A stretch of DNA of 31,768 bases from Gammaproteobacteria bacterium (GCA_018671205.1 JABHIC010000005.1:1-31768); one strand, 5' to 3'. Positions 10,050 through 28,970 are shown, counted from the first letter of the stretch. Numbers and translations: made by a program. Notes: generated by a model from the letters alone, not told the origin.

Positions 10050-11093
10050 ATGAAAAGAGATCGGAACCGTCTTTTTGAAGTAGGGGTGCTTACCTTGCTG
10101 ATACTGATGACAGTGAGCAGGGGGGCTATTGCTGAGCTGGTGTGGAAACCTACGGGTGATGCTAGGGGTATAAAGCTGGAGATGATGAAGGTGAGTGAGG
10201 AGCCGGGGGATGCATTGGCTAAGGCTAAGGCAAGAGCAGAGGCTAAGGCAAGGGCAGAGGCCAAGGCTAGAGCAGAGGCCAAGGCTAGAGCAGAGGCCAA
10301 GGCTAGAGCTAATGGTCTTTGGACCGACCCCTACAGTGGGATCGAGTTTGTTTGGATTCCTGCGGGAGAGTTTATGATGGGGAGTCCCACCTCAGAGCCA
10401 GGTAGAGATAATGATGAGCGGCAACATCGGGTTAAGCTGACCGAAGGGTACTGGATGGGCAAATATGAGGTGACCCAGGGACAGTGGAAAAAGGTGATGG
10501 GGAACAACCCCTCCAACTTTACAAGCTGTGGCAGCAGCTGCCCGGTAGAGATGATCTCATGGGAGGATACCCAGAGCTTTATCCGCAAGCTTAACGGCAG
10601 AGGCAACGGCACCTTCAAACTGCCGAGTGAGGCGCAGTGGGAGTATGCGGCGCGGGCGGGGAGCACCACTGCACTCTATAGTGGCAATCTTACGATAAAG
10701 GGTAAAAATAATGGACCAGAGCTAGATCCGATATCTTGGTACGGAGGTAATAGCGGTGTTCACTATAGCGGTGGTTATGACTGCTCTGGATGGAGTGAAA
10801 AACAGTACAGTAGCAACAGCTGTGGAACCCACCCGGTGGGTAAAAAACAGCCCAATAATTATGGTCTGTATGATATGAGCGGCAACGTATGGGAGTGGGT
10901 GAATGACTGGAAAGGGGGTTATCCGACTGGCACGGTAACGGATCCGGAGGGACCCAGCTCAGGTCGGAGCCGCGTGTATCGTGGCGGCAGCTGGCTCCAC
11001 TACGCGGGGAGCCTGCGTTCTGCGGATCGCTACGACGATTCGCCCAGCTATCGCAACCGCTACCTCGGGGTTCGTCTTTTGAGGCAACCTTAG
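10050..11093 (+). CDS. DGR target protein 1: signal peptide, AKARAE repeats, FGE-sulfatase/CLec-fold domain with VR1
   Basis: FxMGS, YEVTQGQW, LPSEAQWEYAARAG, GNVWEW and RGGSW motifs. The 3' end matches the TR except at adenines. Confidence 0.95.
   Translation: MKRDRNRLFEVGVLTLLILMTVSRGAIAELVWKPTGDARGIKLEMMKVSEEPGDALAKAKARAEAKARAEAKARAEAKARAEAKARANGLWTDPYSGIEFVWIPAGEFMMGSPTSEPGRDNDERQHRVKLTEGYWMGKYEVTQGQWKKVMGNNPSNFTSCGSSCPVEMISWEDTQSFIRKLNGRGNGTFKLPSEAQWEYAARAGSTTALYSGNLTIKGKNNGPELDPISWYGGNSGVHYSGGYDCSGWSEKQYSSNSCGTHPVGKKQPNNYGLYDMSGNVWEWVNDWKGGYPTGTVTDPEGPSSGRSRVYRGGSWLHYAGSLRSADRYDDSPSYRNRYLGVRLLRQP
10224..10313 (+). repeat. Coding tandem repeat, 18-bp unit (AKARAE) x5
   Basis: GC(T/C)AAGGC(A/T)AG(A/G)GCAGAG-type units; the last unit ends in N. 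Confidence 0.9.
10959..11083 (+). repeat. DGR variable repeat VR1
   Basis: Ungapped 125-nt alignment to TR 28846-28970 with 19 mismatches, all at TR adenines. Confidence 0.97.
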
Positions 11094-11355
11094 TAGCGCT
11101 CTGCACTTTTACCCTTTTACCCTTTTACCCTCGAATGGGTAGCCGTAGAGGAGTAGGGGCCGGGCGTGCGCAGCCGACCCGAGCACCGGAACCACTACGG
11201 CGGTGGTGATGGTAGAGTCATTAGTTTTGGCACGGATAGACCCACGGGGCGAAGCCCCGACGCGATTTTTTTGCGTGGAGAGGGTCACTCATTAGCCCCC
11301 TCCGTGTCAGGTCTTGCTTTGTGCCTTTGGCTTCACTAATTCACGAGTCAGCAGG
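11094..11355 (+). repeat. Conserved post-target element, copy 1
   Basis: Near-identical to 14975-15230; the first ~170 nt are also shared with 26833-27004. Contains TACCC-TCGAAT-GGGTA (11126-41) and CGGGGC-GAA-GCCCCG (11245-59). Confidence 0.9.
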
Positions 11356-11440
11356 GGATTACAGGGTCAGAGGGGATTACAGAGGGGATTACAGGGTCAG
11401 TTCTAAGGGATTACACTAAGGATTACAGGGTCAGTTCTAA
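11354..11440. repeat. Irregular short tandem repeats GGATTACA(GGGTCAG)
   Basis: Five GGATTACA cores, three followed by GGGTCAG. No unique spacers. Confidence 0.8.
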
Positions 11441-11522
11441 CATTGCTGAAAATAAAAAAGGGACAGATTTATTTTAGAGGCTGCAGAATGTCTAACTTTT
11501 AATCCTCCCTAGTAATACATTT

Positions 11523-11569
11523 ATGTAGCTACCATATTTATTGACACTGCATATTTTTGTAGCTACAAT
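11523..11569 (+). promoter_or_regulatory. Sigma70 promoter of brnTA with two palindromic operator candidates
   Basis: TTGACA (11541-46), 17 nt, TACAAT (11564-69). Palindrome TTGTAGCTACAA (11557-68) overlaps the -10 box, and a second GTAGCTAC lies at 11525-32. Confidence 0.8.
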
Positions 11570-11576
11570 AATAAGT

Positions 11577-11843
11577 ATGAAGATCGAGTTTGATCCAGAA
11601 AAGAACCGCGTCAACATTGATAAACATCAGATCCCTCTAACTGAGGCCCATCGGGTTGAGTGGGACACTTTATGGTGTAAAGAGGATGTTCGCAGGGATT
11701 ATAACGAGACTCGTATGATAGGTTATGCCTATATTGGGCTGCGCCTTCACTGTGTAATTTATACGGATCGTGGTGAGGTGCGCCGCATTATCAGTTTACG
11801 AAAAGCCAATAAACGGGAGTTGAAGAGTTATGCCGAAGCTTAA
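11577..11843 (+). CDS. brnT: BrnT-family toxin (DUF497)
   Basis: MKIEFDPEKNRVNIDKH...RRIISLRKANKRE. Start moved to ATG 11577, downstream of the promoter. Confidence 0.88.
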   Translation: MKIEFDPEKNRVNIDKHQIPLTEAHRVEWDTLWCKEDVRRDYNETRMIGYAYIGLRLHCVIYTDRGEVRRIISLRKANKRELKSYAEA

Positions 11844-12105
11844 ACCCGGAACTATTATTCCTACCGATGAAGAGGATACTGCAATCAATGATGGTATCGT
11901 CGCTGACCCGGATACTTATGAACTTTCTAGCGAGGAATTCAAGCAGTTACGCCCTGTAGGTCGTCCCAAGAGTGAGAATAAAAAGGTGCTACTCTCTGTG
12001 CGTTATAGCCAAGAGGTGGTGGAGTACTTCAAATCTACTGGCAAGGGGTGGCAGACCCGCATGAATGAAGTACTGCAAGAGTATATAGCCTCACACTCTC
12101 ATTGA
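11830..12105 (+). CDS. brnA: BrnA-family antitoxin (DUF4415)
   Basis: VGRPK...SVRYSQEVVEYFKSTGKGWQTRMNEVL; overlaps brnT. Confidence 0.88.
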   Translation: MPKLKPGTIIPTDEEDTAINDGIVADPDTYELSSEEFKQLRPVGRPKSENKKVLLSVRYSQEVVEYFKSTGKGWQTRMNEVLQEYIASHSH

Positions 12106-12122
12106 GCTGTATGATTTCCAGC

Positions 12123-12658: not shown

Positions 12659-12763
12659 GTGGATGGGGGTGACCTTACGGATGGTTTAAGCAGACCAAAG
12701 ATAGCACGGTTTCCACACTGCCACTATTTACCACCACACTTTTTATGGGTTACGATGGGCACC

Positions 12764-14974
12764 ATGAAACTTCTCTCTATAGTACCTTCTGCCCTGCTGT
12801 TGATGGCAATACTCTCTCCCCCGGTTTTTTCAGCAGCAGAGCCACCAGTTCCGGTGGTTTTGCAACTGCCTGCAGGTGGCGGTGCCGCCCGCTGTGAGGC
12901 GGGGCGAGAACAGTTCTCAACCGCCCTCAAGACACTCGGTCGACCACTGAACATGGAGCAGGCCAGCCAGCAGTGGAGCACCCTGTTTGATGCTCGTGAA
13001 ACAGAGCACCGACAATGGAAGAGCACAAAAGAGCGGCTACGCCGCAGCTTTCTGCAACAACAGGCCAGCGCCAAACAGCAGAGCGAACGCCTCAGCGAGT
13101 TGCAGGCCGAAAAAACCCGATTAGCGGCCGCTATTCGCCAAAAGCAGGAGGTTATCTCCACCGTAAAGCAGCGTGACAGCTCCTACAGCAAGCAGATCGC
13201 CGACGAGGCTCAGCGTCGGGTCGTGGTACTGTTTGATCTCAACTACGATGGCTGGGGCAACGGTACCTCCTGGGGAGAGGCCTTCCGTCAGGCGCAGTCT
13301 CACTGGATGGGAGAGCTGATCGAACAGTCGATGGGGGTTGGTGTCAGCTCCGAGGCGCGGCTGGTCAACGGCCTGTTGATTGAGCAGCGCGCCAAGAGCC
13401 GGGTTGCCGGAAGTGTCGATCCACGTGGTGATGCCATCCACTGGGCACTCTCCGATACCGCAGATGGGCTCTCTCACAGTCTGGTAGTACAGAGCTTTAC
13501 CGTGAGTCCGCTCAAGGGGGAGATCCCCGCTCAACAAGAGCTGGGTAGTGGTATCCGCATGGGACAAACCCCACGAATGCTCCTACAGCAAGATCAGCTG
13601 GCGGAACAGCTCTCCATGCTCCCCCCCGGACTAAAATCCAGAATTGGCGCACTGATTAAAGAGAGTAACGAGACCAACCAGCGCACAGACCAGAATATTG
13701 CCGGTCTGCGCAGCGAATGGCAGCAGAAACGCCAGAGTCAAAATGTGTCGCAGATGGAGCGTGAGCTTCAAACCCTCAAGCGAAAAAAGCAACAGAGCGC
13801 TATCCAGGTAAAAAAACTGAAGAAGGTGGTAACCGCAGAGAAGCGGACAGAGGCAGAGAGCGCAAAACATCTTCAGCAGCATCAGGCCAAAGAGGTGGTG
13901 CCACTAGAGACACGTCTTAGCAAGCCGGTTGGGGTGCTCTCCCCGCGAGATGTAGCCACAGAGTTGACCCTGGAGGCGTGCAGGGAGTTGATGAAAAAGG
14001 CGAAGGAGAGCCGTCATAGTAGCACCACGACGGTAGAGCAGGGGCGTTTGACTCAGGCACAACAGCAGCAGGGGAGGAGGGCGCTGCAGCTGCAGCAGCT
14101 GGAGCTGTTTCCGCTGGGGTATGGGGTAGAGGCGGGAGAGCGCAAGGTCAAGGTGGCGCTGTATGGGCGCTTTCGTAGTGGCGGGCAGGTCGATGTTGCA
14201 ACTAACAGCAACGACCTGAAGCCAGTGTTGGCTGCTGTGAAACGCAAGGCAGGGGATAGCTGGACCGACCCCTATAGCGGGATCGAGTTTGTCTGGATCC
14301 CTGCGGGAGAGTTTAAGATGGGTAGTCCGTCCTCTGAGCCGGAAAGAGATGATGATGAGCGGCAACATCGAGTGAAGCTGACCGAAGGGTACTGGCTGGG
14401 AAAATATGAGGTGACGCAGGGACAGTGGAAAAAGGTGATGGGGAACAACCCCGCCAACTTTACAAGCTGTGGCAGCGACTGCCCGGTAGAGAAGATCTCA
14501 TGGGAGGATACTCAGGACTTTATCCGCAAGCTAAACGGCAGAGGCAACGGCAGCTTCAAGCTGCCGAGTGAGGCGCAGTGGGAGTATGCGGCCCGGGCAG
14601 GGACAACCACCCCGTTCTCGTTTGGAGACAACATCACCACCTCAGAGGCAAACTATGATGGAAACTACCCCTACAATGGGAATGCCAAAGGACGCTATCG
14701 GCAAACCACGGTAGCGGTGGGCAGTTTCCCAGCAAACAGCTGGGGACTGCATGAGATGCATGGCAACGTATGGGAGTGGGTGAATGACTGGTATGGAAAG
14801 TATCCATCAGGCACGGTAATAGATCCGGAGGGACCCAGTTCAGGTCAGTACCGCGTGTTTCGTGGCGGCAGCTGGCACAACTACGCGGAGTACCTGCGTT
14901 CTGCGTTTCGCTACAGCCTTTCGCCCGGCTTTCGCTACAACCGCCTCGGGGTTCGTCTTGTGAGGCAACCTTAG
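12764..14974 (+). CDS. DGR target protein 2: signal peptide, long coiled-coil region, FGE-sulfatase/CLec-fold domain with VR2
   Basis: Same FGE-domain motifs as target 1. Start moved to ATG 12764 (MKLLSIVPSALLL...), since the ORF-track start at 12650 overlaps the divergent gene. Confidence 0.93.
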   Translation: MKLLSIVPSALLLMAILSPPVFSAAEPPVPVVLQLPAGGGAARCEAGREQFSTALKTLGRPLNMEQASQQWSTLFDARETEHRQWKSTKERLRRSFLQQQASAKQQSERLSELQAEKTRLAAAIRQKQEVISTVKQRDSSYSKQIADEAQRRVVVLFDLNYDGWGNGTSWGEAFRQAQSHWMGELIEQSMGVGVSSEARLVNGLLIEQRAKSRVAGSVDPRGDAIHWALSDTADGLSHSLVVQSFTVSPLKGEIPAQQELGSGIRMGQTPRMLLQQDQLAEQLSMLPPGLKSRIGALIKESNETNQRTDQNIAGLRSEWQQKRQSQNVSQMERELQTLKRKKQQSAIQVKKLKKVVTAEKRTEAESAKHLQQHQAKEVVPLETRLSKPVGVLSPRDVATELTLEACRELMKKAKESRHSSTTTVEQGRLTQAQQQQGRRALQLQQLELFPLGYGVEAGERKVKVALYGRFRSGGQVDVATNSNDLKPVLAAVKRKAGDSWTDPYSGIEFVWIPAGEFKMGSPSSEPERDDDERQHRVKLTEGYWLGKYEVTQGQWKKVMGNNPANFTSCGSDCPVEKISWEDTQDFIRKLNGRGNGSFKLPSEAQWEYAARAGTTTPFSFGDNITTSEANYDGNYPYNGNAKGRYRQTTVAVGSFPANSWGLHEMHGNVWEWVNDWYGKYPSGTVIDPEGPSSGQYRVFRGGSWHNYAEYLRSAFRYSLSPGFRYNRLGVRLVRQP
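14840..14964 (+). repeat. DGR variable repeat VR2
   Basis: Ungapped 125-nt alignment to TR with 20 mismatches, all at TR adenines. Confidence 0.97.
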
Positions 14975-15230
14975 TAGCCCTCTGCTCTTTTACCATTTTA
15001 CCCTTGCAGAGGTAGCCGTAGAGGAGTAGGGGCCGGGCGTGCGCAGCCGACCCGAGCACCGGAACCACTACGGCGGTGGGTAGTGGTACTTTCTTTAAGG
15101 TTGGCACGGATAGACCTACGGGGCGAAGCCCCGACGCGATTTTTTTTGCGTGGAGAGGGTCACTCATTAGCCCCCTCCGTGTCAGGTCTTGCTTTGTGCC
15201 TTTGGCTTCACTAATTCACGAGTCAGCAGG
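14975..15230 (+). repeat. Conserved post-target element, copy 2
   Basis: Near-identical to 11094-11355. Contains CGGGGC-GAA-GCCCCG at 15119-33. Confidence 0.9.
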
Positions 15231-15420: not shown

Positions 15421-15990
15421 ATGGTTACCAATAGACATCGGTTAAAAATTACTGTGCTGGCACTGTCGGTGGCGGCATTGAGCGGTTGTAACAGCATGAC
15501 GGCGTTGAATCTGAAACAGCAGCAGGGGGATGAGGGGATCGGCTACCGAGAGGTCCGCTTTGATGAAATTTCGCAACAGCGTGAGTATCAGCAGTGCCGG
15601 GATGAGGCCTTCGAGATGGACCGCAAGGCGATGAGTAGCGCCTCTGCCGGGGGATATCTGACCAGTGCGCGGCTACTGGAGAAGTGTGAGTCACGCCTTA
15701 CCGGTAGTGGTGAGATCGATGAGCAGCAACGGATGCAAGGGTATGCGCTATCGGTTCAGAACTACATGAAGGCGGGTGATCTGGACCAGGCGCGTGTCAA
15801 TCTCACCCAATTCAAACAGACCTTCCCCGATCAGGATCTCTACTACCCGGATGGAACCTCCTTTATTGAAACCATGGAGGTGCTGCTGGGGCAGGCCAAC
15901 TCAACCGACTACGGCTTCTTCTCAGTGCTGAATGTGAATACCGATCTCAAGTCCGAGATGGGGCGTCAGAACTACTGGAAGCATAACTAA
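15421..15990 (+). CDS. Putative lipoprotein, helical (TPR-like)
   Basis: Lipobox LSGC; AGGAG RBS. Confidence 0.75.
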   Translation: MVTNRHRLKITVLALSVAALSGCNSMTALNLKQQQGDEGIGYREVRFDEISQQREYQQCRDEAFEMDRKAMSSASAGGYLTSARLLEKCESRLTGSGEIDEQQRMQGYALSVQNYMKAGDLDQARVNLTQFKQTFPDQDLYYPDGTSFIETMEVLLGQANSTDYGFFSVLNVNTDLKSEMGRQNYWKHN

Positions 15991-16000
15991 GGAGCACAGC

Positions 16001-16894
16001 ATGGGATATTTCAAGATGAGACATTTAAACCAAAAAATGGGTGCAGTGGTACTGGCACTGACACTGGCAATATCACTAACGGTGGTAACCGTTCCCGCCT
16101 CTGCTGCAGCCAGTGACTCCTCCTGGAGACCTCAGGTGAGTGAGAAACTGATTCGCCTTCCCGCCAGCTATCTGAAGCGGGCCATTGACCGTGACTTTTC
16201 GCAATCCTCACTGGCCGGGGCCATTGAGCAGAAGAGCAGTGATCTGCAGTTGAAGTCACAGACCATGCAGGATCTACAGAAGGGGATTGAGCGCTCGGAG
16301 GGTGAGCTGAAGACAGAGATGCGCCACCAGTTTCTAGTGGAGAAGGAGCGCTATCTCGACCTCACCGCAGAGCAGATTGATCTGCGTAAAAGGCATGTAA
16401 AGACCCGTATCACCTTCTATGAACGCCTGCTGGGTGAGGTTGAACAGCACGGTGCAGATAGCGAAGAGGAGATGCAGCTACTGGAGCAACAGCAGGATGC
16501 GGTGAAGCGCTTTGAGGGCAGTGTCGCCAAGGTGGATATGAAACTGTTCGGACAGATGGGCACCCAGCAGAGTAAGTACAGCAAGGAGTACACCAAGAAC
16601 CTCTCCGCGATTGAACGTCTGGTAGGTGCGATTCAGGGCCATAAGATGAACGCCACCACCCAGGTAGATGGAGAGGCGATCTCCAAGCCCGACTACCTGC
16701 GCCGGATGATCACCGAAAGTGAGTCCGAGGTGGCCCTGCTGGAGCAGGAGGAGACCATCCTGGGCTATATGGCAAAACTGATCTCACTGGATGCGCTTGC
16801 CCTCTCGGAAGAGGTGGATGATCCAGAGTGGGTAGACAGTGAGGTGATCAGTACCAGCGTGGCATCGGCAATTGATTTCTTCGTCAGTGAGTAA
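16001..16894 (+). CDS. Exported coiled-coil hypothetical protein
   Basis: AAGGAG RBS, signal peptide ending ASA, E/Q/K/L-rich helical sequence. Confidence 0.75.
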   Translation: MGYFKMRHLNQKMGAVVLALTLAISLTVVTVPASAAASDSSWRPQVSEKLIRLPASYLKRAIDRDFSQSSLAGAIEQKSSDLQLKSQTMQDLQKGIERSEGELKTEMRHQFLVEKERYLDLTAEQIDLRKRHVKTRITFYERLLGEVEQHGADSEEEMQLLEQQQDAVKRFEGSVAKVDMKLFGQMGTQQSKYSKEYTKNLSAIERLVGAIQGHKMNATTQVDGEAISKPDYLRRMITESESEVALLEQEETILGYMAKLISLDALALSEEVDDPEWVDSEVISTSVASAIDFFVSE

Positions 16895-16918
16895 CCGAGC
16901 TTGAACAGGAGTAGAGAG

Positions 16919-17350
16919 ATGAAAGACAAGAATAAGGTAAGTAACAAAATGGGTAACAAGGTAGATAAGAGGATGGTTCAGGTGTTGGCGGCAGTGGCAC
17001 TCAGCGGTGCGGTGGTATTTGCTGCCCAGGCCGGTACGCTGGAGAATATGGAGCGAGAGAGAGCACTAATGATCGATGCGATGCTATCCAAGGATTTGAC
17101 TGTGCAAGAGCGTAAATCACAGATGGGGCAGTCGCGTAATCGGCTGGTGGACCTGGAGAGGATGGTGCTTCGAGACCAATCACTACGAGGCAAGCAGAGC
17201 ACGGCGGTGCGTAAGGCCTTTGAGAATTATGACCTCACCTTTCTGGTCCATGCATCGGTTGAGAACAACCGCCTGCTCTCGGACCAGTGGTTGGAACAGT
17301 TGGGTATATCCACCAAAAGCCTGCTGACCACCCATGTAGGGAGACGCTGA
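16919..17350 (+). CDS. Exported hypothetical protein
   Basis: AGGAG RBS 7 nt before ATG 16919; hydrophobic segment ending AQA-GT. Confidence 0.7.
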   Translation: MKDKNKVSNKMGNKVDKRMVQVLAAVALSGAVVFAAQAGTLENMERERALMIDAMLSKDLTVQERKSQMGQSRNRLVDLERMVLRDQSLRGKQSTAVRKAFENYDLTFLVHASVENNRLLSDQWLEQLGISTKSLLTTHVGRR

Positions 17351-17351
17351 G

Positions 17352-17891
17352 ATGTCCCACTCCGTAACGGTTATTGGGCGAGACCACCAGGGGGTGCGCA
17401 GGGCGACCGGCTATTTCCTGGGTGGAGGGGCCATTGCGCTGGCAGCGGTGGTGATGACCACCTCTACCCTGCCGGGTGAGTTGATTGACCGGGGGTTGCA
17501 GCTCTTCAGCCAGCTCTTTGTCGGCCTACTGGCGGCACTGGTCTTTCTCTCCCTCTATAGCTGGGTGCGGCTAATCTATGGAGATCGTAGAGAGCAGCTA
17601 CTCTGGTTGCAGAGCGGTGTGCAGTCAGCAAACGGGATCACCACACTGGCACTCACCTACACCCTGTACGGTATCAGTTTGGGGATTGGGTCACTGGCGG
17701 GTGAGTCGTTAACTCCTGAGACGATTCAGCAGGTGATCCAATCCCTGACCGACCACTTCAGTATGGCCTTTATGACCACAGTGGTGGGTCTACCGCTCTC
17801 TGCGCTGCTGCGCTCACTGCTACTGGTGAGCTATGAGCGTCATCGATCAACCATTATTGAGCAGGGTAACCTGCAAGGAGAGTTGGAATGA
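17352..17891 (+). CDS. MotA/TolQ/ExbB-like membrane protein
   Basis: About four hydrophobic segments. TTLALTYTLYGISLG and SMAFMTTVVGLPLS resemble the ExbB/TolQ TM2 and TM3 motifs. Confidence 0.6.
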   Translation: MSHSVTVIGRDHQGVRRATGYFLGGGAIALAAVVMTTSTLPGELIDRGLQLFSQLFVGLLAALVFLSLYSWVRLIYGDRREQLLWLQSGVQSANGITTLALTYTLYGISLGIGSLAGESLTPETIQQVIQSLTDHFSMAFMTTVVGLPLSALLRSLLLVSYERHRSTIIEQGNLQGELE

Positions 17892-19209: not shown

Positions 19210-19210
19210 G

Positions 19211-19657: not shown

Positions 19658-19671
19658 CGGAGGATGACAGA

Positions 19672-20181: not shown

Positions 20182-21682
20182 TGTTTTTCCTTTTTTGCAG
20201 CAGGGGGTCAGCAGTGACCTCAAGTCAGTTTTTGAGCTGCTGGAGACCACCGAGATTGATGGTCAGAACAAATACAGCGCCAAAGGGCACCAGAAATTGA
20301 TGTTGCTGGTGGTCTGCCGCAACTATAGCAAGGCGCTGCTCGAACTCTGTTATCTGATTGTTATGGTGGTCTCTCCTCTGCAGAGTGAGAAGCGAAAAAA
20401 GGGGCTCTACCACTTCTTCTTCGGTATCTCACCCGCTGCAGCCAGCCAATATAGCCACCATTTCGGTGATACTGGCGACAATATTGGTGATGAGCCACTG
20501 CGTTCGATAGAGGTAGAGGGGGGAGAATTCTCAATCTATTTCTCTAGAATGCCGGTGCTGGTTGAGTTGATGGAGTTGATGATTACGCTGCTGGACTACA
20601 GGGAGATCGAGGGGATACTGACTCCGTTGATGGAGAGAGAGTCACTGAGTAAGCCCCTGAACAAGAAATTGGTTTCAGAGGTGGCCAATGCGCTCAGCGC
20701 CCAGTTCTATCAAGAGATGAACCACCATCTTCCCGCAGCGCAGCAGCAGCGGAAGTATCAGCAGATTGCACAGTTTATGTTGTCACGGCACCCAGATGGT
20801 TTTCGTTACCACCAGATTGGCGATGATGAGGTGCTGGAGTTCTGGAAGGCGTTCAGTGAACAGCAGAGTCGATCTGCTGAAGACTTTGTGAAGTATGCCT
20901 CGGTATTGGGTGGCTTCATGGACTTCTACCGCACCTCCAAGGTGGTCTATGAGATGGAGGTGAGTAGAGCATACTCATCACATGAGAGTATGAGTGAGGG
21001 GGAGATCGCACAGAGCTTGCACGATGTGATGGTAGAGGAAGAGGAGTTACCGTTAGAGCAGTTGAGTGAGTCACCAGTCGATCGGGTGAAGTTTCTCAAT
21101 AAACGGGAGCTGGATCAGCTGCGTTGGCTGTTTGAGAGTCCACAGCCCGTTATTCAGCACTTTATGTGCTCCTGCCTGAGAAGCCGGTTGTTTGGGTCGA
21201 TCCAGAACCAGTTGATTGAACAGCTGCGGCGTAGAGAAGGTGCAGGGGCGGAGATGGATCTGCTGATTGAACAGATAATGGGGTCGGATTGGCAAGGCTA
21301 CCAACCGCTGTTGGATCAGGACCAGAAGTTGAGCCAGTTTTTGCAACGTCTGCTGTTTGCATCACTCCATCCACTGTTTCAGCGTGAGCAGCAAGTGACA
21401 GATTGGGGGGCGCTGATCGGGCCAGAAGAGAGTGAATGGAATCTGCGCAAGCGGGCAAGGTCTGAATTTTCAAAAATCAGCAGAAAAGGGTTTGAAAAAC
21501 AGAATAGTGGTGAGCAGGCGGAGATCTTTATCCAGGCAATACCGATCCTGCTGGGAATTCGCAAGCGCTTCTCCAGCTATCAGCAGTGGCTGCAACAGGA
21601 TGAACGCATTGAGCAGCGCAGTAGAGAAGATCAAAGGGTGTTTAAAAAAGTGCTGAAACAGATTTATCAGATAAGGAGATAG
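20174..21682 (+). CDS. Cytoplasmic helical hypothetical protein (502 aa)
   Basis: Long ORF coupled to its neighbours. No signal peptide and no motif recognised. Confidence 0.7.
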   Translation: MRNVFPFLQQGVSSDLKSVFELLETTEIDGQNKYSAKGHQKLMLLVVCRNYSKALLELCYLIVMVVSPLQSEKRKKGLYHFFFGISPAAASQYSHHFGDTGDNIGDEPLRSIEVEGGEFSIYFSRMPVLVELMELMITLLDYREIEGILTPLMERESLSKPLNKKLVSEVANALSAQFYQEMNHHLPAAQQQRKYQQIAQFMLSRHPDGFRYHQIGDDEVLEFWKAFSEQQSRSAEDFVKYASVLGGFMDFYRTSKVVYEMEVSRAYSSHESMSEGEIAQSLHDVMVEEEELPLEQLSESPVDRVKFLNKRELDQLRWLFESPQPVIQHFMCSCLRSRLFGSIQNQLIEQLRRREGAGAEMDLLIEQIMGSDWQGYQPLLDQDQKLSQFLQRLLFASLHPLFQREQQVTDWGALIGPEESEWNLRKRARSEFSKISRKGFEKQNSGEQAEIFIQAIPILLGIRKRFSSYQQWLQQDERIEQRSREDQRVFKKVLKQIYQIRR

Positions 21683-21685
21683 GCC

Positions 21686-22219
21686 ATGAACAGCGTAAAT
21701 ATGGAGCGGGTTAAAGAAGAGCTTTTTGTCTCCCTGTCACTGATGAGAGATGCAAAAGAGGGGCGCAGAGAGGATGTAGTGAGAGGGGCATCGGCCTCTG
21801 AGATCTATCACTATGTGATGGGTGGAGAGGTTAATGGTGTGATGGATGCAAAAATTTCAGACGACCAGGGCTCCAGTGAACTCTATCGACAGTTTATTGA
21901 AGCACATGCACGCTTCTACATTCCTCAGGCCGCTGCTGCCAGTAGTGATCAGCAGTTGATGAGCAGGGAGAGCAATGAGGTTGTGGTCCGCCTGATACCC
22001 TCCAGAACTGAACCCGAGCAGATCTACCTTGTGGTTGAATTCAGATACGACCGGAAGGGTAAAGAACGTGCTCGATTGACCGTGTTTGGTAAAGAGGGGG
22101 AACAGGCACACATTCAGCTCACCGGGATTGCTGCCGGGCGCTGTCAGTTACTGATGAAGAGAGATACAGCGCTGATTCAGCTACTGCAACAGGTCGATTC
22201 AGAACTGTTTATTGTTTAG
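21686..22219 (+). CDS. Cytoplasmic hypothetical protein (177 aa)
   Basis: Coupled ORF. Helical N-terminus, PQAAAAS linker, beta-rich C-terminus. Confidence 0.65.
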   Translation: MNSVNMERVKEELFVSLSLMRDAKEGRREDVVRGASASEIYHYVMGGEVNGVMDAKISDDQGSSELYRQFIEAHARFYIPQAAAASSDQQLMSRESNEVVVRLIPSRTEPEQIYLVVEFRYDRKGKERARLTVFGKEGEQAHIQLTGIAAGRCQLLMKRDTALIQLLQQVDSELFIV

Positions 22220-22307: not shown

Positions 22308-23225
22308 ATGAACAGAGCACGATCCATACTATTCATTATTCTACTCTCACTCACGTTTGGCTCGGCCCAGGCCATCATCGGCAGCTTCAAACTAAACGCC
22401 CCGGCAATACGTGCGGTCGATGTGGACAGCAACATACCCGCAGGAAGAGCGGCCGGAGAGTACGATATCGCCCTGTTGATTGGCAACCGCAACTACCCGC
22501 GTGAAGGCATACCCAATGTCGACTACGCCCATAATGACTTGAAGACCATGCGCAACTACCTTCAGAAAACCATGGGCTTTCGTGCTGACAACATCATAGT
22601 AGAGAAAGACCTCACCAAAGGCAGCTTCGAGACCCTGTTTGGTACCGCCGCCAACCCCAGAGGAAAATTGCAGCGTTACCTGATGGCTGGTGAGAGCAAG
22701 CTCTTTATCTACTATGTAGGGCATGGCGCACCCGATCCAGAGAGCGGAGATGGCTTCTTTGTACCGGTAGATGCCGACCCTGACTACATCGCCAACTCAG
22801 GCTATAAACTGGCCACCTTCTACGCCAACCTGAAACGGCTACCAGCCAAACAGACCATAGTGGTACTCGATGCCTGTTTTTCAGGGCGTACCCAAAAAGG
22901 GCTGCTGTTTAAAAATGTCAGCCCTGCACTGCTCAAGGTGAATGAGAGCCAATTCGGCCTAAGCTCAGGTGCAGTCTTCTCCAGTGCACGCGGTAGCCAG
23001 CTCTCCACCTGGTACCCAAAAAAACGCCATAGCATGTTTAGCTACTACTTCTTCAAGGGGATGCAAGGTGCCGCAGACAGCAACAGTGATGGCAAGATTA
23101 CCAGCGGAGAGATGCAACACTATGTGGCAAAAAATGTTCGTTATATGGCCGGCAGAGTGGCAGGCAAAGATCAAGAGCCACAAATGGAAGGGGAGAAGGG
23201 GCTGGTGCTGGCCCACCTGCGTTAA
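22308..23225 (+). CDS. Exported stand-alone caspase-family (peptidase C14) protein
   Basis: Signal peptide ending AQA. ALLIGNRNY, YYVGHG (His) and VLDACFSG (Cys) motifs. Confidence 0.9.
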   Translation: MNRARSILFIILLSLTFGSAQAIIGSFKLNAPAIRAVDVDSNIPAGRAAGEYDIALLIGNRNYPREGIPNVDYAHNDLKTMRNYLQKTMGFRADNIIVEKDLTKGSFETLFGTAANPRGKLQRYLMAGESKLFIYYVGHGAPDPESGDGFFVPVDADPDYIANSGYKLATFYANLKRLPAKQTIVVLDACFSGRTQKGLLFKNVSPALLKVNESQFGLSSGAVFSSARGSQLSTWYPKKRHSMFSYYFFKGMQGAADSNSDGKITSGEMQHYVAKNVRYMAGRVAGKDQEPQMEGEKGLVLAHLR

Positions 23226-23230: not shown

Positions 23231-24973
23231 ATGGCCAAGCTGAATTTACCGACCATGCAGTTCCCTCCTCCTATCAGGGGGAGGGTTAGGGAGGGGGTTA
23301 AGTGGTTGAGTTATGCTCTCCACTCCACCTCCATCCAAGCCCTACTGCTGCTCTCTCTACTGCTCTCTCCGCTATCTGCCCAGGCAGAGAGCGACACTGC
23401 ACCCATTTTTAAACGCTTTGCCACCCAGCTAACCCAGCAACTTCCACCACAGAGCCGAGTAGCAATAGAGCCACTGCGCTACCAGCCGATCGGTATACCC
23501 AGAGAGATTGCCGCACAGATCGATGATCAGATCTACCACGCCCTGCACCAGCAGCGCAAAGCAGAGATGAGGCTGCTGGCAAGGTCTCAACTACGACAGA
23601 TCTGGCGAGAGATTGGTGAATTTGAGAGCAGAGAGATCAACCAACAGCTAGAGGATGCCAGAGCTGATATCCTGGTTCTTGCACGCACTACAGCAGTAGC
23701 TACTGGAGTAGAGCTGCGTTATCAGGCATACGCCCTGCAAGATGGAAAAACAGGACAACTGCTCGCCTCCACCGAACCGGCAATCTTGACCCACAAACAG
23801 CTCACCCCCACCCCGCAGCGGCTTGAGATTGCCATTGCCCAATCGGTAGAGAGGGTGCTACCACAGCTTACCTTGCTGCTGAATGGAGAGCCGTTGCAGA
23901 TTAAACAGATCGGCCCTGTCGGTGATCTAAGAGACTACATCACCATCCCCCTGATCCAACAACTTATACAGCGCACAGCAGAGCAGGCACGGAAGCAGGA
24001 GGTAAATATCAGCCGTTCTCTCGAACGATCCAAACCGCGCCCAACCACCACACTCACACTACAGAGTGATCTCTGGAAACAGCCAGATAGCCTGAAGATT
24101 CAGCTCACCTTGCAGAGCCCAGACCAGCAGCAGATTCAACTCACCCTGATGATTGCGCTAGATCCGACACTACAGCAGATGCTACAAGGGGTGCCACTGG
24201 GGCGAATCCATAACGGCTACCGGCAGACCACAGCCGGCGCTGAAATTGGCAGAGCCTTTGAAAATCGTCGGGCCGCCACCCAGGCCGCCAGAATTGCCGC
24301 CCGAGCAGCGCTGATCCGTATGGCCCTGATGCCGGGTAGCGTGCAAAATAGCGCAACAGTAACGGCCTCACCTCTAGCCGCACTCAGCCAGCAACCCCCG
24401 CTGATGCGTGAAACCCAGAGAGCAATCACCGTAGATGAGCAGTGGCAAGGCACACCCCATGGCAATCGGGTCGAGCAGACCCTGCGTGCCCGGGTGGTCC
24501 AACTTGCCAATCCGCCACCACAAAATTTGAAAGCAACGCTGCAAACAGAACAGATTCTGGCCGGAGAGCCGATACAGATCAATCTCACCCCCACCACTCG
24601 CCACAAGCTCTATCTGGGTGTTTTCGTCTGGCAGGCGGATGACACAGTAGTACGCATCTATCCACAGCCCTCCAAACCACAATTCACCCTCAATACACCA
24701 CTACAGATCCCGCAACCCTACGAGGATCAACTCACCAGCTACCCGATGCCGGGAGAGCGGGCCAATCAAGAGGCGATCATCCTGCTGGCAAGCCAGAGCC
24801 CACTCGATTACGCCGCCATGGCCCCCACTGTCCGAACCGATATTGGTCAACCCTTCAAGGCCCGCCCCGTTGCACAGTTCTGGAAGGCGATCACTGAAAT
24901 CGGACTAGAGTTGCCTCGGCTGCAGCTACAGGTGCTACCCTACAGCGTGCATCAATCCACTGATAGAGAATAG
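23231..24973 (+). CDS. Exported FlgO/CsgG-like plus DUF4384-like protein, paralog of 5439-7094
   Basis: KLYLGVFVWQADDTVVRIYP and QEAIILLASQSPLDY align with the paralog. Signal ending AQA-ES. True start uncertain. Confidence 0.65.
   Translation: MAKLNLPTMQFPPPIRGRVREGVKWLSYALHSTSIQALLLLSLLLSPLSAQAESDTAPIFKRFATQLTQQLPPQSRVAIEPLRYQPIGIPREIAAQIDDQIYHALHQQRKAEMRLLARSQLRQIWREIGEFESREINQQLEDARADILVLARTTAVATGVELRYQAYALQDGKTGQLLASTEPAILTHKQLTPTPQRLEIAIAQSVERVLPQLTLLLNGEPLQIKQIGPVGDLRDYITIPLIQQLIQRTAEQARKQEVNISRSLERSKPRPTTTLTLQSDLWKQPDSLKIQLTLQSPDQQQIQLTLMIALDPTLQQMLQGVPLGRIHNGYRQTTAGAEIGRAFENRRAATQAARIAARAALIRMALMPGSVQNSATVTASPLAALSQQPPLMRETQRAITVDEQWQGTPHGNRVEQTLRARVVQLANPPPQNLKATLQTEQILAGEPIQINLTPTTRHKLYLGVFVWQADDTVVRIYPQPSKPQFTLNTPLQIPQPYEDQLTSYPMPGERANQEAIILLASQSPLDYAAMAPTVRTDIGQPFKARPVAQFWKAITEIGLELPRLQLQVLPYSVHQSTDRE
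23261..23300. repeat. G/C-rich palindromic repeat unit at the 5' end of the 23231 ORF
   Basis: CCCTCCTCCT-ATC-AGGGGGAGGG followed by TTAGGGAGGGGG; translates as FPPPIRGRVREG. Confidence 0.55.
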
Positions 24974-25120: not shown

Positions 25121-25417
25121 GTGATTATAGGTTTTAGGGATAAGTGGTTAGAGCAATTTTATCTGCAGAATAGAGGAACCAAAAAAATCCCAGCATCTGT
25201 GCGTGATCGGTTATTTCGTAAGTTGCAGCTGATAGATGATGCATCATCTGATGTGGATTTACGAGTACCAACCAGTAACCATTTTGAAAAATTATCCGGA
25301 CGACTGGAGCCGTTCTGCTCAATACGGGTTAACAGGCAGTGGAGATTAATTTTTCGTTGGAATGGTGAGAGGGGTGAGGCAGAGTCTCTCTACTTAGACA
25401 ACCATGATTATCGTTGA
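25121..25417 (+). CDS. higB: HigB-family (RelE-like) toxin
   Basis: MIxxFRDKWLEQFY...DLRVPTSNHFEKLSG...SIRVNRQWRLIFRW; toxin precedes antitoxin. Confidence 0.9.
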   Translation: MIIGFRDKWLEQFYLQNRGTKKIPASVRDRLFRKLQLIDDASSDVDLRVPTSNHFEKLSGRLEPFCSIRVNRQWRLIFRWNGERGEAESLYLDNHDYR

Positions 25418-25423
25418 GGTGAA

Positions 25424-25732
25424 ATGATGAATATTACAAAGCGTAAACCGGTAGGGGTTGGAGAGATGTTAACGGAAGAGTTTATGGCACCCCTTGATAT
25501 AACTCAGAGTAAGCTTGCAGAAGCAATGGGGGTTAGTAGAAAGACAGTGAATGAGTTATGTAATGATAGGCGCTCAATTACGGCAGAGAGCGCATTAATG
25601 TTAAGCCGCGTGTTTGGTAATAGCGCAGATTTTTGGCTAAATCTTCAGCAAAGAATAGATATCTGGGAGGTGTTGAACTCACCTAAACGAAGGCATCGAA
25701 TAGAGATGGCTCACCCTATTACCGTGAATTAA
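25424..25732 (+). CDS. higA: HigA-family antitoxin (XRE HTH)
   Basis: GEMLTEEFMAPLDITQSKLAEAMGVSRKTVNEL...ITAESALMLSRVFGNSADFWLNLQ. Confidence 0.9.
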   Translation: MMNITKRKPVGVGEMLTEEFMAPLDITQSKLAEAMGVSRKTVNELCNDRRSITAESALMLSRVFGNSADFWLNLQQRIDIWEVLNSPKRRHRIEMAHPITVN

Positions 25733-25749
25733 GAGATAGACCCACTACC

Positions 25750-26832
25750 ATGAGAACAGCCCCCTACATCATATTGCTACTCCTCCTTCCCGGTCTGCTG
25801 TTTGCGGCCGATATTCCAACCGTCACTTCACTGGAGATGGAACAGAAGCTGGATGAGCTTCACCTCAACTACACCCTGGAGAGCCCCACGGGGGCCTATG
25901 CCGAGGTACTGCTGGAGATCAGTGAAGATCAGGGCGGAAATTGGCGTACCCCCAAAGGGGCGAAGGGGGATATCGGCAGTGGAATCCCCGCTGGAGCCAA
26001 CCGGATCATCTGGGATATCTATAGCGAATACCCTAAAGGGATTCAGGGGGTGGTCGATTTTAAGCTTCAGACCCGTGCCGAACAGCAGCAGACCCCGGAA
26101 CAAAAGGCTGGGGATAGCTGGACGGACCCCTATAGTGGAATAGAGTTTGTGTGGATTCCTGCAGGAGAGTTTATGATGGGTAGCCCATCCTCTGAGCCAG
26201 GTAGAGATGATGATGAGCGGCAACATCGGGTTAAGCTGAGCGAAGGGTACTGGCTGGGCAGATACGAAGTGACTCAGAGGCAGTGGAAAAAAGTGATGGG
26301 GAACAACCCCTCGAAATTCACAAGCTGCGGCAGCGACTGCCCGGTAGAGAAGATCTCATGGGAGGATACCCAGGACTTTATCCGCAAGCTAAACGGCAGA
26401 GGCAACGGCAGCTTCAAACTGCCGAGTGAGGCGCAGTGGGAGTATGCGGCCCGAGCAGGGACCACCACCCCGTTCTCGTTTGGAAACAACATCACCGCCT
26501 CACAGGCAAACTATGATGGAAACTACCCCTACAACGGCAATGCCAAAGGACGTTACCGGAAGACTACTGTAACGGTGGGCAGTTTTCCAGCCAACCGATG
26601 GGGACTGCATGAGATGCATGGCAACGTATGGGAGTGGCTGAATGACTGGAAAGGGAATTATCCGTCGGGCACGGTAACAGATCCGGAGGGACCCGGCTCG
26701 GGTCAGTACCGCGTGATTCGTGGCGGCAGCTGGAACCGCTACGCGGGGTCCCTGCGTTCTGCGAATCGCAACTACTATTCGCCCGGCGGTCGCGGCTACG
26801 ACCTCGGGGTTCGTCTTATGAGGCAACCTTAG
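25750..26832 (+). CDS. DGR target protein 3 (cassette-proximal): signal peptide, beta-rich N-domain, FGE-sulfatase/CLec domain with VR3
   Basis: Same FGE-domain motifs as the other targets; 3' end matches the TR. Confidence 0.95.
   Translation: MRTAPYIILLLLLPGLLFAADIPTVTSLEMEQKLDELHLNYTLESPTGAYAEVLLEISEDQGGNWRTPKGAKGDIGSGIPAGANRIIWDIYSEYPKGIQGVVDFKLQTRAEQQQTPEQKAGDSWTDPYSGIEFVWIPAGEFMMGSPSSEPGRDDDERQHRVKLSEGYWLGRYEVTQRQWKKVMGNNPSKFTSCGSDCPVEKISWEDTQDFIRKLNGRGNGSFKLPSEAQWEYAARAGTTTPFSFGNNITASQANYDGNYPYNGNAKGRYRKTTVTVGSFPANRWGLHEMHGNVWEWLNDWKGNYPSGTVTDPEGPGSGQYRVIRGGSWNRYAGSLRSANRNYYSPGGRGYDLGVRLMRQP
26698..26822 (+). repeat. DGR variable repeat VR3
   Basis: Ungapped 125-nt alignment to TR with 19 mismatches, all at TR adenines. 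Confidence 0.97.
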
Positions 26833-27004
26833 TAGCCCTCTGCTCTTTTACCCTTTTACCCTCGAAGAGGTAGCCGTAGAGGAGTAGGGGCTAGGCGTGC
26901 GTAGCCGCCCCAAGCCCCGGAACCACTGCGGCGGTGGATAGTTGTACTCTCATTAAGGTGGGCACGGATAGACCCTCGGGGCGAAGCCCCGACGCAATTT
27001 TTTT
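26833..27004 (+). repeat. Conserved post-target element, copy 3
   Basis: Contains CCTC-GAA-GAGG (within 26857-72) and a perfect TCGGGGC-GAA-GCCCCGA (26976-92). Confidence 0.88.
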
Positions 27005-27020
27005 GGATAATCGGATGTTG

Positions 27021-27497
27021 ATGAAGGTGATAACGCTACATTTTAGTGTGGTGATGAATGGCTTTGACGATACCCCGCTGACAGCCTTTATTCAGGATAA
27101 GTCGGTGCTGTCGTTACGAGACCACTTTTTTGTCCACAATGAAAAACCCTATCTGGCCGTGGTTGTGGTCTATGACCCGGTTGCAGAGCCGACAGGAAAG
27201 GGAAAAGGCGCTACCCGGAGGGGTTCTCGCGATGAGTCCTGGCGTACTCTGCTCAGTGATGAGCAGATGCCGTTATTCGATACCCTGCGCAGCTGGCGTG
27301 CAGAACAGAGCAAACAGGAGGGGATTCCTCCGTATGTGATCTGTAACAATCGGCAGTTGGCGCAAATTGTAGCGGCACGTCCGCAGACACTCTCGGCACT
27401 GATGCAGATCGATGGGTTGGGTAAGGCCAAGGTGGAAAAGTATGGTCAACCCCTGCTGGATCAACTGTTGGCAGAGAGTGGTGATGCAAAAGAGTAA
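27021..27497 (+). CDS. HRDC-domain DGR accessory protein
   Basis: LFDTLRSWRAEQSKQEGIPPYVICNNRQLAQIV...LMQIDGLGKAKVEKYG is an HRDC domain. HRDC accessory genes are known from some DGRs. Start moved to ATG 27021. Confidence 0.85.
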   Translation: MKVITLHFSVVMNGFDDTPLTAFIQDKSVLSLRDHFFVHNEKPYLAVVVVYDPVAEPTGKGKGATRRGSRDESWRTLLSDEQMPLFDTLRSWRAEQSKQEGIPPYVICNNRQLAQIVAARPQTLSALMQIDGLGKAKVEKYGQPLLDQLLAESGDAKE

Positions 27498-27828
27498 TCA
27501 AGATCTGCCGGTTTTTGTGAAGTGGATCGACTTTTTGGAGTGGTTACTGCCAGTGACCGAGCGCTTTCCAAAGCGTGTGCGGTTCAGTTTTTCGGAGCGT
27601 ATTAATCAGTTGGCACTGGACATCGTCGAGGATCTGGTCGAGGCGCGTTATAGCAACAACAAGCGGGAGATACTGCGGCGTGCCAATTTGCGTTTAGAGA
27701 AGTTGCGAGTACTGCTGCGCATCTCCAATAAGCAGAAATTCCTCGATTACAAACGCTATGAGTATGCGATGCAAGAGATCAATCAAGTCGGTAAGATGTT
27801 GGGTGGCTGGTTGAAGCAGCAGCAATGA
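27484..27828 (+). CDS. avd: Avd (accessory variability determinant), four-helix bundle
   Basis: FPKRVRFSFSERI...ANLRLEKLRVLLRIS...EINQVGKMLGGW; 114 aa; overlaps the RT start. Confidence 0.93.
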   Translation: MQKSNQDLPVFVKWIDFLEWLLPVTERFPKRVRFSFSERINQLALDIVEDLVEARYSNNKREILRRANLRLEKLRVLLRISNKQKFLDYKRYEYAMQEINQVGKMLGGWLKQQQ

Positions 27829-28838
27829 GACGGGTAGGGCACGTTTTTTCGCAGGTAGTCGGGTTTGAGAACCTATTGCAGGCGGCTCATCAAGCAGCAC
27901 GTGGTAAAAAAATGCAGCTACGTGTTGCACATTTTATATTTCATCTGGAGTCTGAGTTGTTGCAGATACAGGGTGAGCTGGAGCAGTCTAACTGGCAGCC
28001 CGGTAACTTCCGTATATTTGAGATCAGTGAACCAAAGCCACGGCGTATCAGTGCTGCCGACTTTCGGGATCGAGTTGTTCACCACGCAATTTGCAAGGTA
28101 TTAGGGCCAATTTTTGATAAACGCATGATCTTTGATAGCTGGGCATGCCGTAGCGGTAAAGGTTCACACCGGGCCGTGCAGCGAGCAAAACGGTTCAGTG
28201 GTAAATATCCCTATTACCTTAAATGCGATATTCGGCGCTACTTCGACAATGTAGACCACGCTGTTCTGAAGCAGTTGTTGCGCAGAATACTCAAAGACCG
28301 GCCTATGCTGGATGTTCTCGATAAAATTATTGACCATCCACTGCCTGGAGCGGCACCGGGAAAGGGGTTGCCCATTGGTAATTTACCCAGCCAGTATTTC
28401 GCCAATCTCTACCTTGGAGAGCTGGATCATGAGCTGAAAGATCGATACGGTATCAAGGCGTATCTGCGTTATATGGATGATATGTTGGTGTTTGCGCAAG
28501 ATAAGCAACAACTGCATGATGTTCTTGCTACGATAGAGCACTTTATTGAGGTTAAGTTACAGTTGAAATTAAAGCCTTCAGCAACCTGTATTGCGCCGGT
28601 TACTGAGGGGGTGCCCTTTTTGGGGTTTAGAATTTTTCCCGGATTAGTGCGCTTGAACGCGCAAAGCTTGCGTAGATTTCGTCGACGTCTATCATTATGC
28701 GAGCAAGAGTACCGTTTGGGAAAAATAGATGTGGATCAGTTAGCCGCATCTGTACAGAGTATGTTGGCCCATTTGCAACATGCGGATACGCATCGGTTGA
28801 GGCAGTCGTTACTCTCCTCCTCTTTTGCGTTGGGATGA
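27825..28838 (+). CDS. DGR-class reverse transcriptase
   Basis: FRDRVVHHA, YLKCDIRRYF, GLPIGNLPSQYFANLYL and YLRYMDD motifs. 337 aa with no maturase or endonuclease extension. Confidence 0.97.
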   Translation: MRRVGHVFSQVVGFENLLQAAHQAARGKKMQLRVAHFIFHLESELLQIQGELEQSNWQPGNFRIFEISEPKPRRISAADFRDRVVHHAICKVLGPIFDKRMIFDSWACRSGKGSHRAVQRAKRFSGKYPYYLKCDIRRYFDNVDHAVLKQLLRRILKDRPMLDVLDKIIDHPLPGAAPGKGLPIGNLPSQYFANLYLGELDHELKDRYGIKAYLRYMDDMLVFAQDKQQLHDVLATIEHFIEVKLQLKLKPSATCIAPVTEGVPFLGFRIFPGLVRLNAQSLRRFRRRLSLCEQEYRLGKIDVDQLAASVQSMLAHLQHADTHRLRQSLLSSSFALG

Positions 28839-28845
28839 TGGGAGA

Positions 28846-28970
28846 TCAGGTCAGAACCGCGTGAATCGTGGCGGCAGCTGGAACAACAACGCGAAGAACC
28901 TGCGTTCTGCGAATCGCAACAACAATTCGCCCAGCAATCGCAACAACAACCTCGGGGTTCGTCTTATGAG
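28846..28970 (+). repeat. DGR template repeat (TR)
   Basis: Starts 8 nt after the RT stop. 36 adenines and 14 AAY codons in the VR frame. May extend 3 nt upstream (AGA versus AGC/AGT/GGC in the VRs). Confidence 0.97.

Follow-up and report, generated by a model that had tools for sequence, protein, structure and literature searches.

An HRDC-type diversity-generating retroelement with three target genes in a small-genome marine gammaproteobacterium

Diversity-generating retroelements (DGRs) with several, non-adjacent targets have already been published, as have targets that combine caspase and lectin domains. Wu et al. 2018 (PMC5758913) recorded non-adjacent targets in 45 of 372 cases, with FGE-sulfatase as the largest target class and HRDC in 4%; this HRDC "Architecture C" was restricted to the clade of the Treponema DGR, which is also the clade with the least evidence of phage association. 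In Trichodesmium, one template repeat (TR) serves 12 targets (PMC4143802), 76 remote targets are distributed over 21 cyanobacterial genomes (PMC7517822), and the targets of a single Thiohalocapsa locus are diversified to differing levels (Dore 2024, PMC10907252). Among cellular DGR targets, the majority have a signal peptide or membrane anchor, and binding of extracellular substrates is their assumed role (PMC8144416). Proteins that fuse caspase and FGE-sulfatase domains are also known, some of which are DGR targets (PMC3501461, PMC7517822). The present analysis concerns a DGR in a stretch of 31,768 nucleotides from a Gammaproteobacteria bacterium (GCA_018671205.1, JABHIC010000005.1:1-31768), referred to as the window, in which the genes for a reverse transcriptase (RT), Avd and an HRDC-domain protein and a TR are accompanied by three target genes that each end in a variable repeat (VR) (Table 1). 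The element is regarded with high confidence as a chromosomal, HRDC-type DGR with three targets that is not linked to a phage; this confidence covers the DGR mechanism and the three targets, not the functional reading discussed below. An original prediction, made from the sequence of the window, had assigned the locus to the known class of multi-target DGRs, and the published precedents agree with it.

Compared with the DGR of Treponema denticola and its target TvpA (PMC5758913), the window likewise has HRDC in the cassette, an RT that groups with HRDC-bearing RTs, one TR for several non-adjacent targets, and targets with an FGE-sulfatase-subclass lectin fold, a C-terminal VR and no FGE catalytic cysteines. 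Unlike T. denticola, it has Avd besides HRDC and a TR behind the RT gene, its three targets lie within 18 kb on one strand, two of them adjoin exported caspase/DUF4384 genes, and the host is a small-genome marine gammaproteobacterium. The system of Trichodesmium erythraeum IMS101 (Pfreundt et al. 2014, PMC4143802) resembles the window in the position of the TR downstream of the RT, in an abundant discrete RNA, in the use of one TR for dispersed genes that end in an FGE-sulfatase domain behind differing N-terminal parts, and in that its activity was inferred from natural populations. It differs in having 12 targets, mostly cytoplasmic kinase fusions, and an RT pseudogene in the cultured strain; one of its targets carries a caspase domain as a fusion, whereas in the window the caspase is encoded on its own and exported, and natural alleles give direct evidence. 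Cyanobacterial and Thiohalocapsa DGRs with CLec sensors (Vallota-Eastman 2020, PMC7517822; Kaur 2020, PMC7159879; Dore 2024, PMC10907252) similarly place a C-terminal CLec/FGE domain on differing N-terminal modules, use one TR for remote targets, associate caspase-type peptidases with these targets and diversify the targets of one locus unevenly. In contrast to these systems, the window has no MoxR, vWA or STAND among its main open reading frames (ORFs), export is predicted for its targets, caspases and DUF4384 proteins, and its host shows no indication of multicellularity. The DGR of Bordetella phage BPP-1 (mtd-avd-TR-brt) shares with the window adenine-specific mutagenesis, Avd, an 8UB7-like RT over the full length and a VR at the C-terminus of a lectin-fold protein. 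Unlike the BPP-1 element, that of the window is cellular, has three targets and the order target-HRDC-avd-RT-TR, and is without a recognisable initiation-of-mutagenic-homing (IMH/IMH*) pair or a perfect GC hairpin directly behind its VRs. Particular to the window locus are the split-gene arrangement of exported caspase, DUF4384 and lectin-fold proteins, HRDC and Avd together, and the quality of the natural allele record.

Table 1. Coordinates of the retroelement, its targets and the associated neighbouring genes in the window.
Feature	Coordinates	Strand	Description
TR	28846..28970	+	125 nt, 36 adenines, 14 in-frame AAY codons; begins 8 nt past the RT stop codon
VR1	10959..11083	+	19 A-only mismatches to TR; 2 alleles, apart at 23 A positions
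VR2	14840..14964	+	20 A-only mismatches to TR; 3 assembly alleles and 1 more in run X1
VR3	26698..26822	+	19 A-only mismatches to TR; 6 DNA alleles (assemblies), 9 protein alleles with cluster members
Candidate TR-RNA	28562..28986	+	metatranscriptome contig: RT gene 3′ end, whole TR, 16 nt beyond
DGR reverse transcriptase	27825..28838	+	337 aa; RVT_1 match; IGNL(P/T)SQ and YMDD motifs in translation
Avd accessory protein	27484..27828	+	114 aa; PF22296 bAvd, E 2e-21; called 114 aa in other assemblies
HRDC-domain accessory protein	27015..27497	+	~160 aa; PF00570, E 1e-20; called 158-160 aa elsewhere
Target 1	10050..11093	+	347 aa: predicted signal peptide, variable-length Ala/Lys/Arg/Glu repeat linker, FGE-sulfatase/CLec domain
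Target 2	12755..14974	+	~739 aa: predicted signal peptide, ~500-aa N-terminal region, FGE-sulfatase/CLec domain
Target 3	25750..26832	+	360 aa: predicted signal peptide, ~100-aa N-terminal region, TvpA-like FGE-sulfatase/CLec domain
Non-coding 3′ flank of target 3	26823..27014	+	~170 nt conserved behind all three VRs
Exported DUF4384-type protein 1	5439..7094	+	paralog of 23231-24973; Pfam match below gathering score
Exported caspase-like protease 1	7110..10025	+	PF00656; 971 residues; His/Cys dyad intact; directly upstream of target 1
Exported caspase-like protease 2	22308..23225	+	upstream of target 3; DUF4384 gene and HigBA between
Exported DUF4384-type protein 2	23231..24973	+	predicted signal peptide

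Template repeat, variable repeats and natural alleles

A gap-free scan of both strands of the window with the 125-nt TR as a query returned exactly four matching sites, the TR itself included. The mismatches of the three VRs (19, 20 and 19 for VR1, VR2 and VR3) fall without exception on the 36 adenines of the TR and never on its 89 non-adenine positions; the chance of 58 of 58 mismatches lying on adenines is about 1e-31. As the VRs differ pairwise at 22-24 positions, each of them was diversified independently. The distances from the TR are 17.9 kb (VR1), 14.0 kb (VR2) and 2.1 kb (VR3). The AAY codons alone correspond to 15^14 = 2.9e16 variants, and all adenine-containing codons to about 7e19 stop-free variants per target. 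These results reproduce what the original prediction had claimed, namely a gap-free alignment with 19, 20 and 19 mismatches that are all at adenines, independently diversified VRs, two targets about 14 and 18 kb from the TR and about 3e16 variants per target; non-adenine mismatches, which it had named as evidence against a DGR, numbered 0 of 89 upon computational realignment. It had also proposed a search for additional VR copies, and none, either full or partial/truncated, was found in the 2.63-Mb, 84%-complete assembly.

The population evidence consists of assembled contigs and independent metagenome assemblies instead of the raw reads that the prediction had envisaged, and it revealed adenine-restricted variation at all three VRs together with an invariant TR. 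The locus is present in at least 12 DNA runs (11 study codes) of marine or seawater metagenomes. Contigs of three runs from three studies are identical to the window over kilobases, with the differences clustered in VR2 and VR3, and 34 of the 35 VR differences listed for public runs are on TR adenines. Cross-mapping among the three VRs was considered as the source of such differences and rejected, the alternative alleles being at least 21 positions away from every other VR of the window. All 10 independent assemblies have the same TR; among them, two alleles of VR1, three of VR2 and six of VR3 were distinguished at the DNA level, none with a non-adenine mismatch to the TR. In assemblies L044-L047, all 218 substitutions within VRs relative to the window are on TR adenines. 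Outside the VRs, the 8-21 kb compared differ by no more than 1-3 point changes per locus, indels of whole repeat units and a single flank patch that has recombined. The VRs differ at 18-25 adenine positions, and their backgrounds are almost without other point substitutions over ~20 kb. At the protein level, a cluster at 90% identity holds nine 360-residue target 3 proteins from different assemblies. Their residues 1-318 are identical save for one substitution (in the window copy) and one target-2-like stretch (in one copy), and all columns that vary in the VR part (residues 317-360) stand for adenine-containing TR codons. Over 11 alleles, TR adenines are represented by A (42%), G (24%), T (24%) and C (10%); T at the first base of the AAG codon, the one substitution that would yield a stop, was never seen among them. 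The variation covers TR positions 8-121 (28853-28966); the adenine at 28969 is constant, and the one immediately before the TR does not vary among copies of a given paralog. Across assemblies, the ORFs of RT, Avd and HRDC are intact and hardly vary.

In one metatranscriptome, a TR-spanning RNA contig (426 nt, word depth 63) was found that has no differences from the window, while the adjoining bin inside the RT gene has a depth of 0 and the target-gene bins have depths of <1 to ~11. This RNA resembles the likewise abundant TR-RNA of Trichodesmium (PMC4143802). A scan around the RNA gave no plus-strand promoter-like or terminator-like sites, the RNA structure just past the TR was not significant (z -1.7), and an Rfam scan of the window returned no match. 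Because the TR is invariant, many VR alleles exist for three targets on near-identical genomes, and a TR-spanning RNA is present, the DGR is considered recently active. This activity is episodic, since three assemblies have VR1 and VR2 alleles in common.

Two further features were seen among the alleles. The VR3 of L045 and that of L044 are identical at both ends and differ in the middle third alone, a mosaic that could be a partial replacement event or a mixed-population consensus. Length differences between assemblies are whole repeat units at 10292-10309 (18 nt in the Ala/Lys/Arg linker of target 1), 11412-11427 (12 nt, intergenic) and 18048-18065 (18 nt within a Ser-Ala-Gln repeat of ORF 17888-18343).

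Cassette enzymes, target proteins and their 3′ flanks

The cassette runs in the order target 3, HRDC, Avd, RT and TR. Along its full length, the RT matches 8UB7, the Bordetella phage DGR RT, best among Protein Data Bank (PDB) entries (E 1e-50), which, in combination with the hallmark motif of the RT and the presence of Avd and HRDC genes, bears out the DGR call of the original prediction. Residue 188 of the RT, within IGxxxSQ, is Pro in the window (IGNLPSQ) and Thr (IGNLTSQ) in three DNA runs and most other assemblies, a difference that corresponds to 28386 C>A. A longer Avd ORF from 27412 probably does not represent the true start, and the HRDC start is placed at about 27015, as the alignment with homologs that neighbour related RTs begins at residue 26-28 of the long ORF. 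In a reference set with one genome per species, no RT exceeds 46% identity, and the nearest come from at least eight phyla. An HRDC gene lies just upstream of RT or Avd-RT in 16 of 37 related loci. Placement of the RT in a phylogeny had likewise been proposed; in a maximum-likelihood tree, built without the reference sequences of the published tree (Wu et al. 2018), the window RT belongs to a clade (support 95/96) in which all 17 HRDC-bearing rows are found, among them a Treponema genome bin. This clustering fits the restriction of "Architecture C" to the Treponema DGR clade. Since a close relative of the RT was found in none of 14 genomes from the genus, the element was probably acquired horizontally.

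All three VRs sit at the 3′ ends of ORFs with a C-terminal FGE-sulfatase domain (PF03781, E 1e-44 to 1e-47). The target 2 ORF is open from 12650, and gene calls in other assemblies are 736-739 aa. TvpA of T. denticola (2Y3C) is the best solved match by sequence (E 1e-25, with the alignment extending through the VR) as well as the top Foldseek match of the target fold in a predicted structure (E 2e-16, TM 0.67). In the structure model of target 3, the lectin domain alone is confident, residues 1-116 having a predicted local distance difference test (pLDDT) score of <50. The catalytic cysteines of human FGE, C336 and C341, which are mutated in PDB entries 2AFT (C336S) and 2AFY (C341S), align in the targets to a 3-residue deletion and a hypervariable residue, and the TR encodes no cysteine codon. 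Because this catalytic pair is absent, the targets are, as judged from their sequences, binders and not enzymes. Signal peptides, called by a simple hydrophobicity heuristic, are predicted on the three targets, both caspases and both DUF4384 proteins. The three target genes have in common ~700 bp of lectin-domain coding sequence and ~170 nt of 3′ flank at 74-98% DNA identity, with the exception of block 26460-26599, in which target 1 is just ~40% identical to targets 2 and 3 and one short stretch also diverges between the latter two. Because the shared DNA covers these parts and the N-terminal parts are unrelated, the unit copied between genes is the lectin domain with the VR and the 3′ flank. 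The original prediction had described exported, receptor-like targets with unrelated N-termini, which accords with the predicted signal peptides, the likeness to TvpA in sequence and fold, and the lack of DNA similarity among the N-terminal parts of the targets. For these parts, it had named a short Ala/Lys/Arg stalk in target 1, a putative coiled coil of ~500 aa in target 2 and a putative beta-rich domain in target 3, the last of which falls in the low-confidence part of the structure model. One member of the target 3 cluster (P0011) has a target-2-like central stretch at residues 246-283 and the same VR as P0006, which suggests recombination among paralogous lectin domains or a chimeric assembly.

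The same 14 nt, unlike the TR, follow all VRs and precede the conserved ~170-nt flank; targets 1 and 2 have ~290 nt of flank in common. A GC hairpin (26976-26992) and, behind it, a T run close the flank of target 3. Hairpins proximal to the VRs are imperfect only, and the three flanks have no perfect repeat in common. According to established DGR biology, an RNA containing the TR would be made from the region just behind the RT gene, and the RT with Avd, and probably with the HRDC protein, would copy it into cDNA with misincorporation opposite adenines. This cDNA would then replace the final ~120 nt of the coding sequence in three genes of the same contig, each of which ends in the same cassette of FGE-sulfatase/CLec domain, VR and ~170-nt non-coding 3′ flank; we infer a role of this flank in target recognition from the same source. 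A ~65-nt patch of the 3′ flanks (11207-11272 in target 1, 15080-15147 in target 2) exists in two forms, a and b, with form a in target 1 and form b in target 2 of the window and L044, b in both targets of L045 and a in both targets of L046. This distribution stems from gene conversion between the target cassettes or from mis-threading during assembly.

Exported caspase-like neighbours and rival readings

A DUF4384-type gene, caspase 1 and target 1 follow one another in the window, and a second caspase/DUF4384 pair is followed by HigBA and target 3. The caspase and DUF4384 paralogs of the two sets are just 28-32% identical, and both caspases retain the dyad of His (GHG) and Cys (LDAC). Either a signal peptide or a lipobox is present on nearly all proteins encoded at 702-26832. 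The relatives of caspase 1 have identities of 41-58%, and full comparison of three of them gave alignments over ~640 residues; a lipobox stands at the start of three of the four relatives whose N-terminus was read, the fourth call beginning further in. FGE-type genes follow caspase relatives in 4 of 6 other loci, directly behind the caspase relative in L062 (twice), L064 and L067, and after the caspase relative and a DUF4384 gene in Ca. Thiodiazotropha taylori (L063). No TR/VR pair was found within 10 kb on either side of the modules of L062-L064, so that the caspase-FGE module exists elsewhere without a local DGR. An Enterobacterales genome bin (L001), whose RT is among the closest (45% identical), has the order target-TR-HRDC-Avd-RT-caspase-target 2. 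A homolog search with the DUF4384 protein returned the self match alone, and a complex prediction of caspase 1 (residues 337-971) with the lectin domain of target 1 scored 0.00, which is evidence neither way. Because caspase relatives adjoin FGE genes, and in view of the L001 layout and the published fusions, a functional link between the variable lectin-fold proteins and the exported caspases is plausible from gene content.

What the variable proteins do can be read in more than one way. They may be periplasmic or surface ligand binders that act as recognition partners of the exported caspase-like proteases and DUF4384 proteins, a reading that falls somewhat short of probable. Alternatively, they may work on their own as adhesins or as proteins that bind particles, a role proposed for Treponema TvpA, with a caspase/DUF4384 neighbourhood that has no functional meaning. 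This alternative is a tentative one. It draws on TvpA as the closest solved relative, on the extracellular binding assumed for most exported cellular DGR targets (PMC8144416), on the two caspase relatives without an FGE neighbour, and on target 2, which has no adjoining caspase, the nearest being caspase 1 ~2.7 kb upstream past target 1 and a toxin-antitoxin pair; against it, the caspase/DUF4384/target arrangement occurs twice in the window from diverged paralogs and recurs in 4 of 6 unrelated loci and in L001, and many proteins are caspase-FGE fusions (PMC3501461, PMC7517822). A more specific version of the recognition-partner reading, in which the DGR has become coupled to a conserved module outside the cytoplasm that consists of an exported caspase-like protease, in many cases a DUF4384 protein, and one or two FGE/lectin-fold proteins, likewise exported, that serve as interchangeable recognition subunits directing or gating the protease, is unlikely on present evidence. 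If true, it would imply a hypervariable "binder plus protease" system for surveillance or surface remodelling outside the cytoplasm, assembled from separate genes, unlike the published caspase-lectin fusions. A cytoplasmic DGR-linked conflict system of the kind found in multicellular bacteria (MoxR-vWA "VMAP ternary" or STAND NTPase) would also pair diversified FGE/CLec sensors with caspase-type effectors (PMC7159879, PMC10907252). However, no MoxR, vWA, STAND NTPase, TIR, trypsin or EAD domain was detected in the main ORFs of the window with Pfam and NCBIfam, the targets, both caspases and both DUF4384 proteins carry predicted signal peptides, and the genomes of the genus are small (1.5-3.1 Mb), which makes such a system quite improbable.

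Regarding the element itself, a fossil whose VRs were diversified long ago and whose cassette is now dead would account for the VR1 and VR2 alleles shared by L044, L045 and L046, and the allele record comes from assembled sequences. Nevertheless, it is hard to reconcile with intact and nearly invariant RT, Avd and HRDC ORFs, with a TR that is the same in 10 assemblies beside VRs differing at 18-25 adenines on a near-unchanged ~20-kb background, and with TR-containing RNA that is abundant in a metatranscriptome, and is thus deemed very improbable. Still less credible is a phage-borne DGR with prophage receptor-binding proteins as targets, for which a RusA-like match (phrog_3007) 1.6 kb past the TR and the DUF2787 gene behind it could be cited; no phage structural family was found in the 10 unassigned ORFs (PHROGs) or in the main ORFs (Pfam), the targets carry predicted Sec signal peptides, and the RT lies in the HRDC/Treponema clade, the least phage-associated one according to Wu et al. 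(PMC5758913). Several observations nonetheless weigh against a recently active, chromosomal DGR linked to caspases. TR/VR homology stops 4 nt past the last mutated adenine with no classical IMH/IMH* pair evident, and no perfect hairpin or cruciform directly follows all three VRs. One listed VR2 difference in run X1 is on a non-adenine base (14905). The identity of the VR1 and VR2 alleles in L044, L045 and L046 runs counter to continuous rewriting, and the differences from which activity was deduced are between assembled contigs and not among raw reads of a single sample. DNA may be present in the RNA run, but the uneven depth speaks against this. The caspase link is one of gene neighbourhood alone, and the caspase relatives in L065 and L066 (2 of 6 loci) have no FGE-sulfatase neighbour.

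Knowledge of how DGRs work is unchanged by this locus, which documents in unusually clean form how a DGR has acted in trans on three genes in nature. Genomes that are almost identical over 20 kb but differ in their adenine-restricted VR alleles across many marine metagenomes would make a good field system for determining the frequency and evenness with which a cellular DGR rewrites targets both near and far. The caspase-lectin theme was earlier described mainly from filamentous cyanobacteria and other multicellular bacteria; here, it appears in a small-genome marine gammaproteobacterium, and the arrangement suggests a testable partnership of variable binder and protease outside the cytoplasm.

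Further genes of the window and genome

Toxin-antitoxin pairs interrupt the cluster, namely BrnT/BrnA at 11541-12105 (Pfam calls in other assemblies) and HigB/HigA at 25121-25732. Past the TR, a gene for an HU/IHF-type DNA-binding protein (29249-29563, minus strand) is followed by the RusA-like resolvase family match (30611-31192) and the DUF2787 gene (31223-31645), which together may be the remnant of a mobile island. The region 15421-22219 encodes exported or membrane proteins without a family assignment that are found at 100% identity in many marine assemblies, and an SLT lytic transglycosylase lies at 19672-20181. ORF 17352-17891 has three hydrophobic segments and sub-threshold matches to MotA_ExbB (E 0.14) and ZorA (E 0.012); an ExbB/ExbD/TonB identity was considered for 15421-20181 and not confirmed, as the matches were all sub-threshold.

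Two more DGR cassettes are present in the same 2.6-Mb assembly (C436:494-2901 and C16:6200-8710), both with the order target-Avd-RT-TR and no HRDC. That of C436 (VR 1098-1218, TR 2781-2901) has 16 adenine-only mismatches, and no remote targets of its TR were found; the C16 pair has 16 adenine and 4 non-adenine mismatches. The RTs of the two cassettes pair together outside the HRDC clade. At the boundary of caspase 2 and its DUF4384 neighbour, a G/C-rich, partly palindromic segment of ~45 nt (23259-23304) has ~15 times the surrounding k-mer depth in all four runs, with many different flanks, and one copy in the assembly; this segment may be a repeat element that is shared within the community or was left unassembled.

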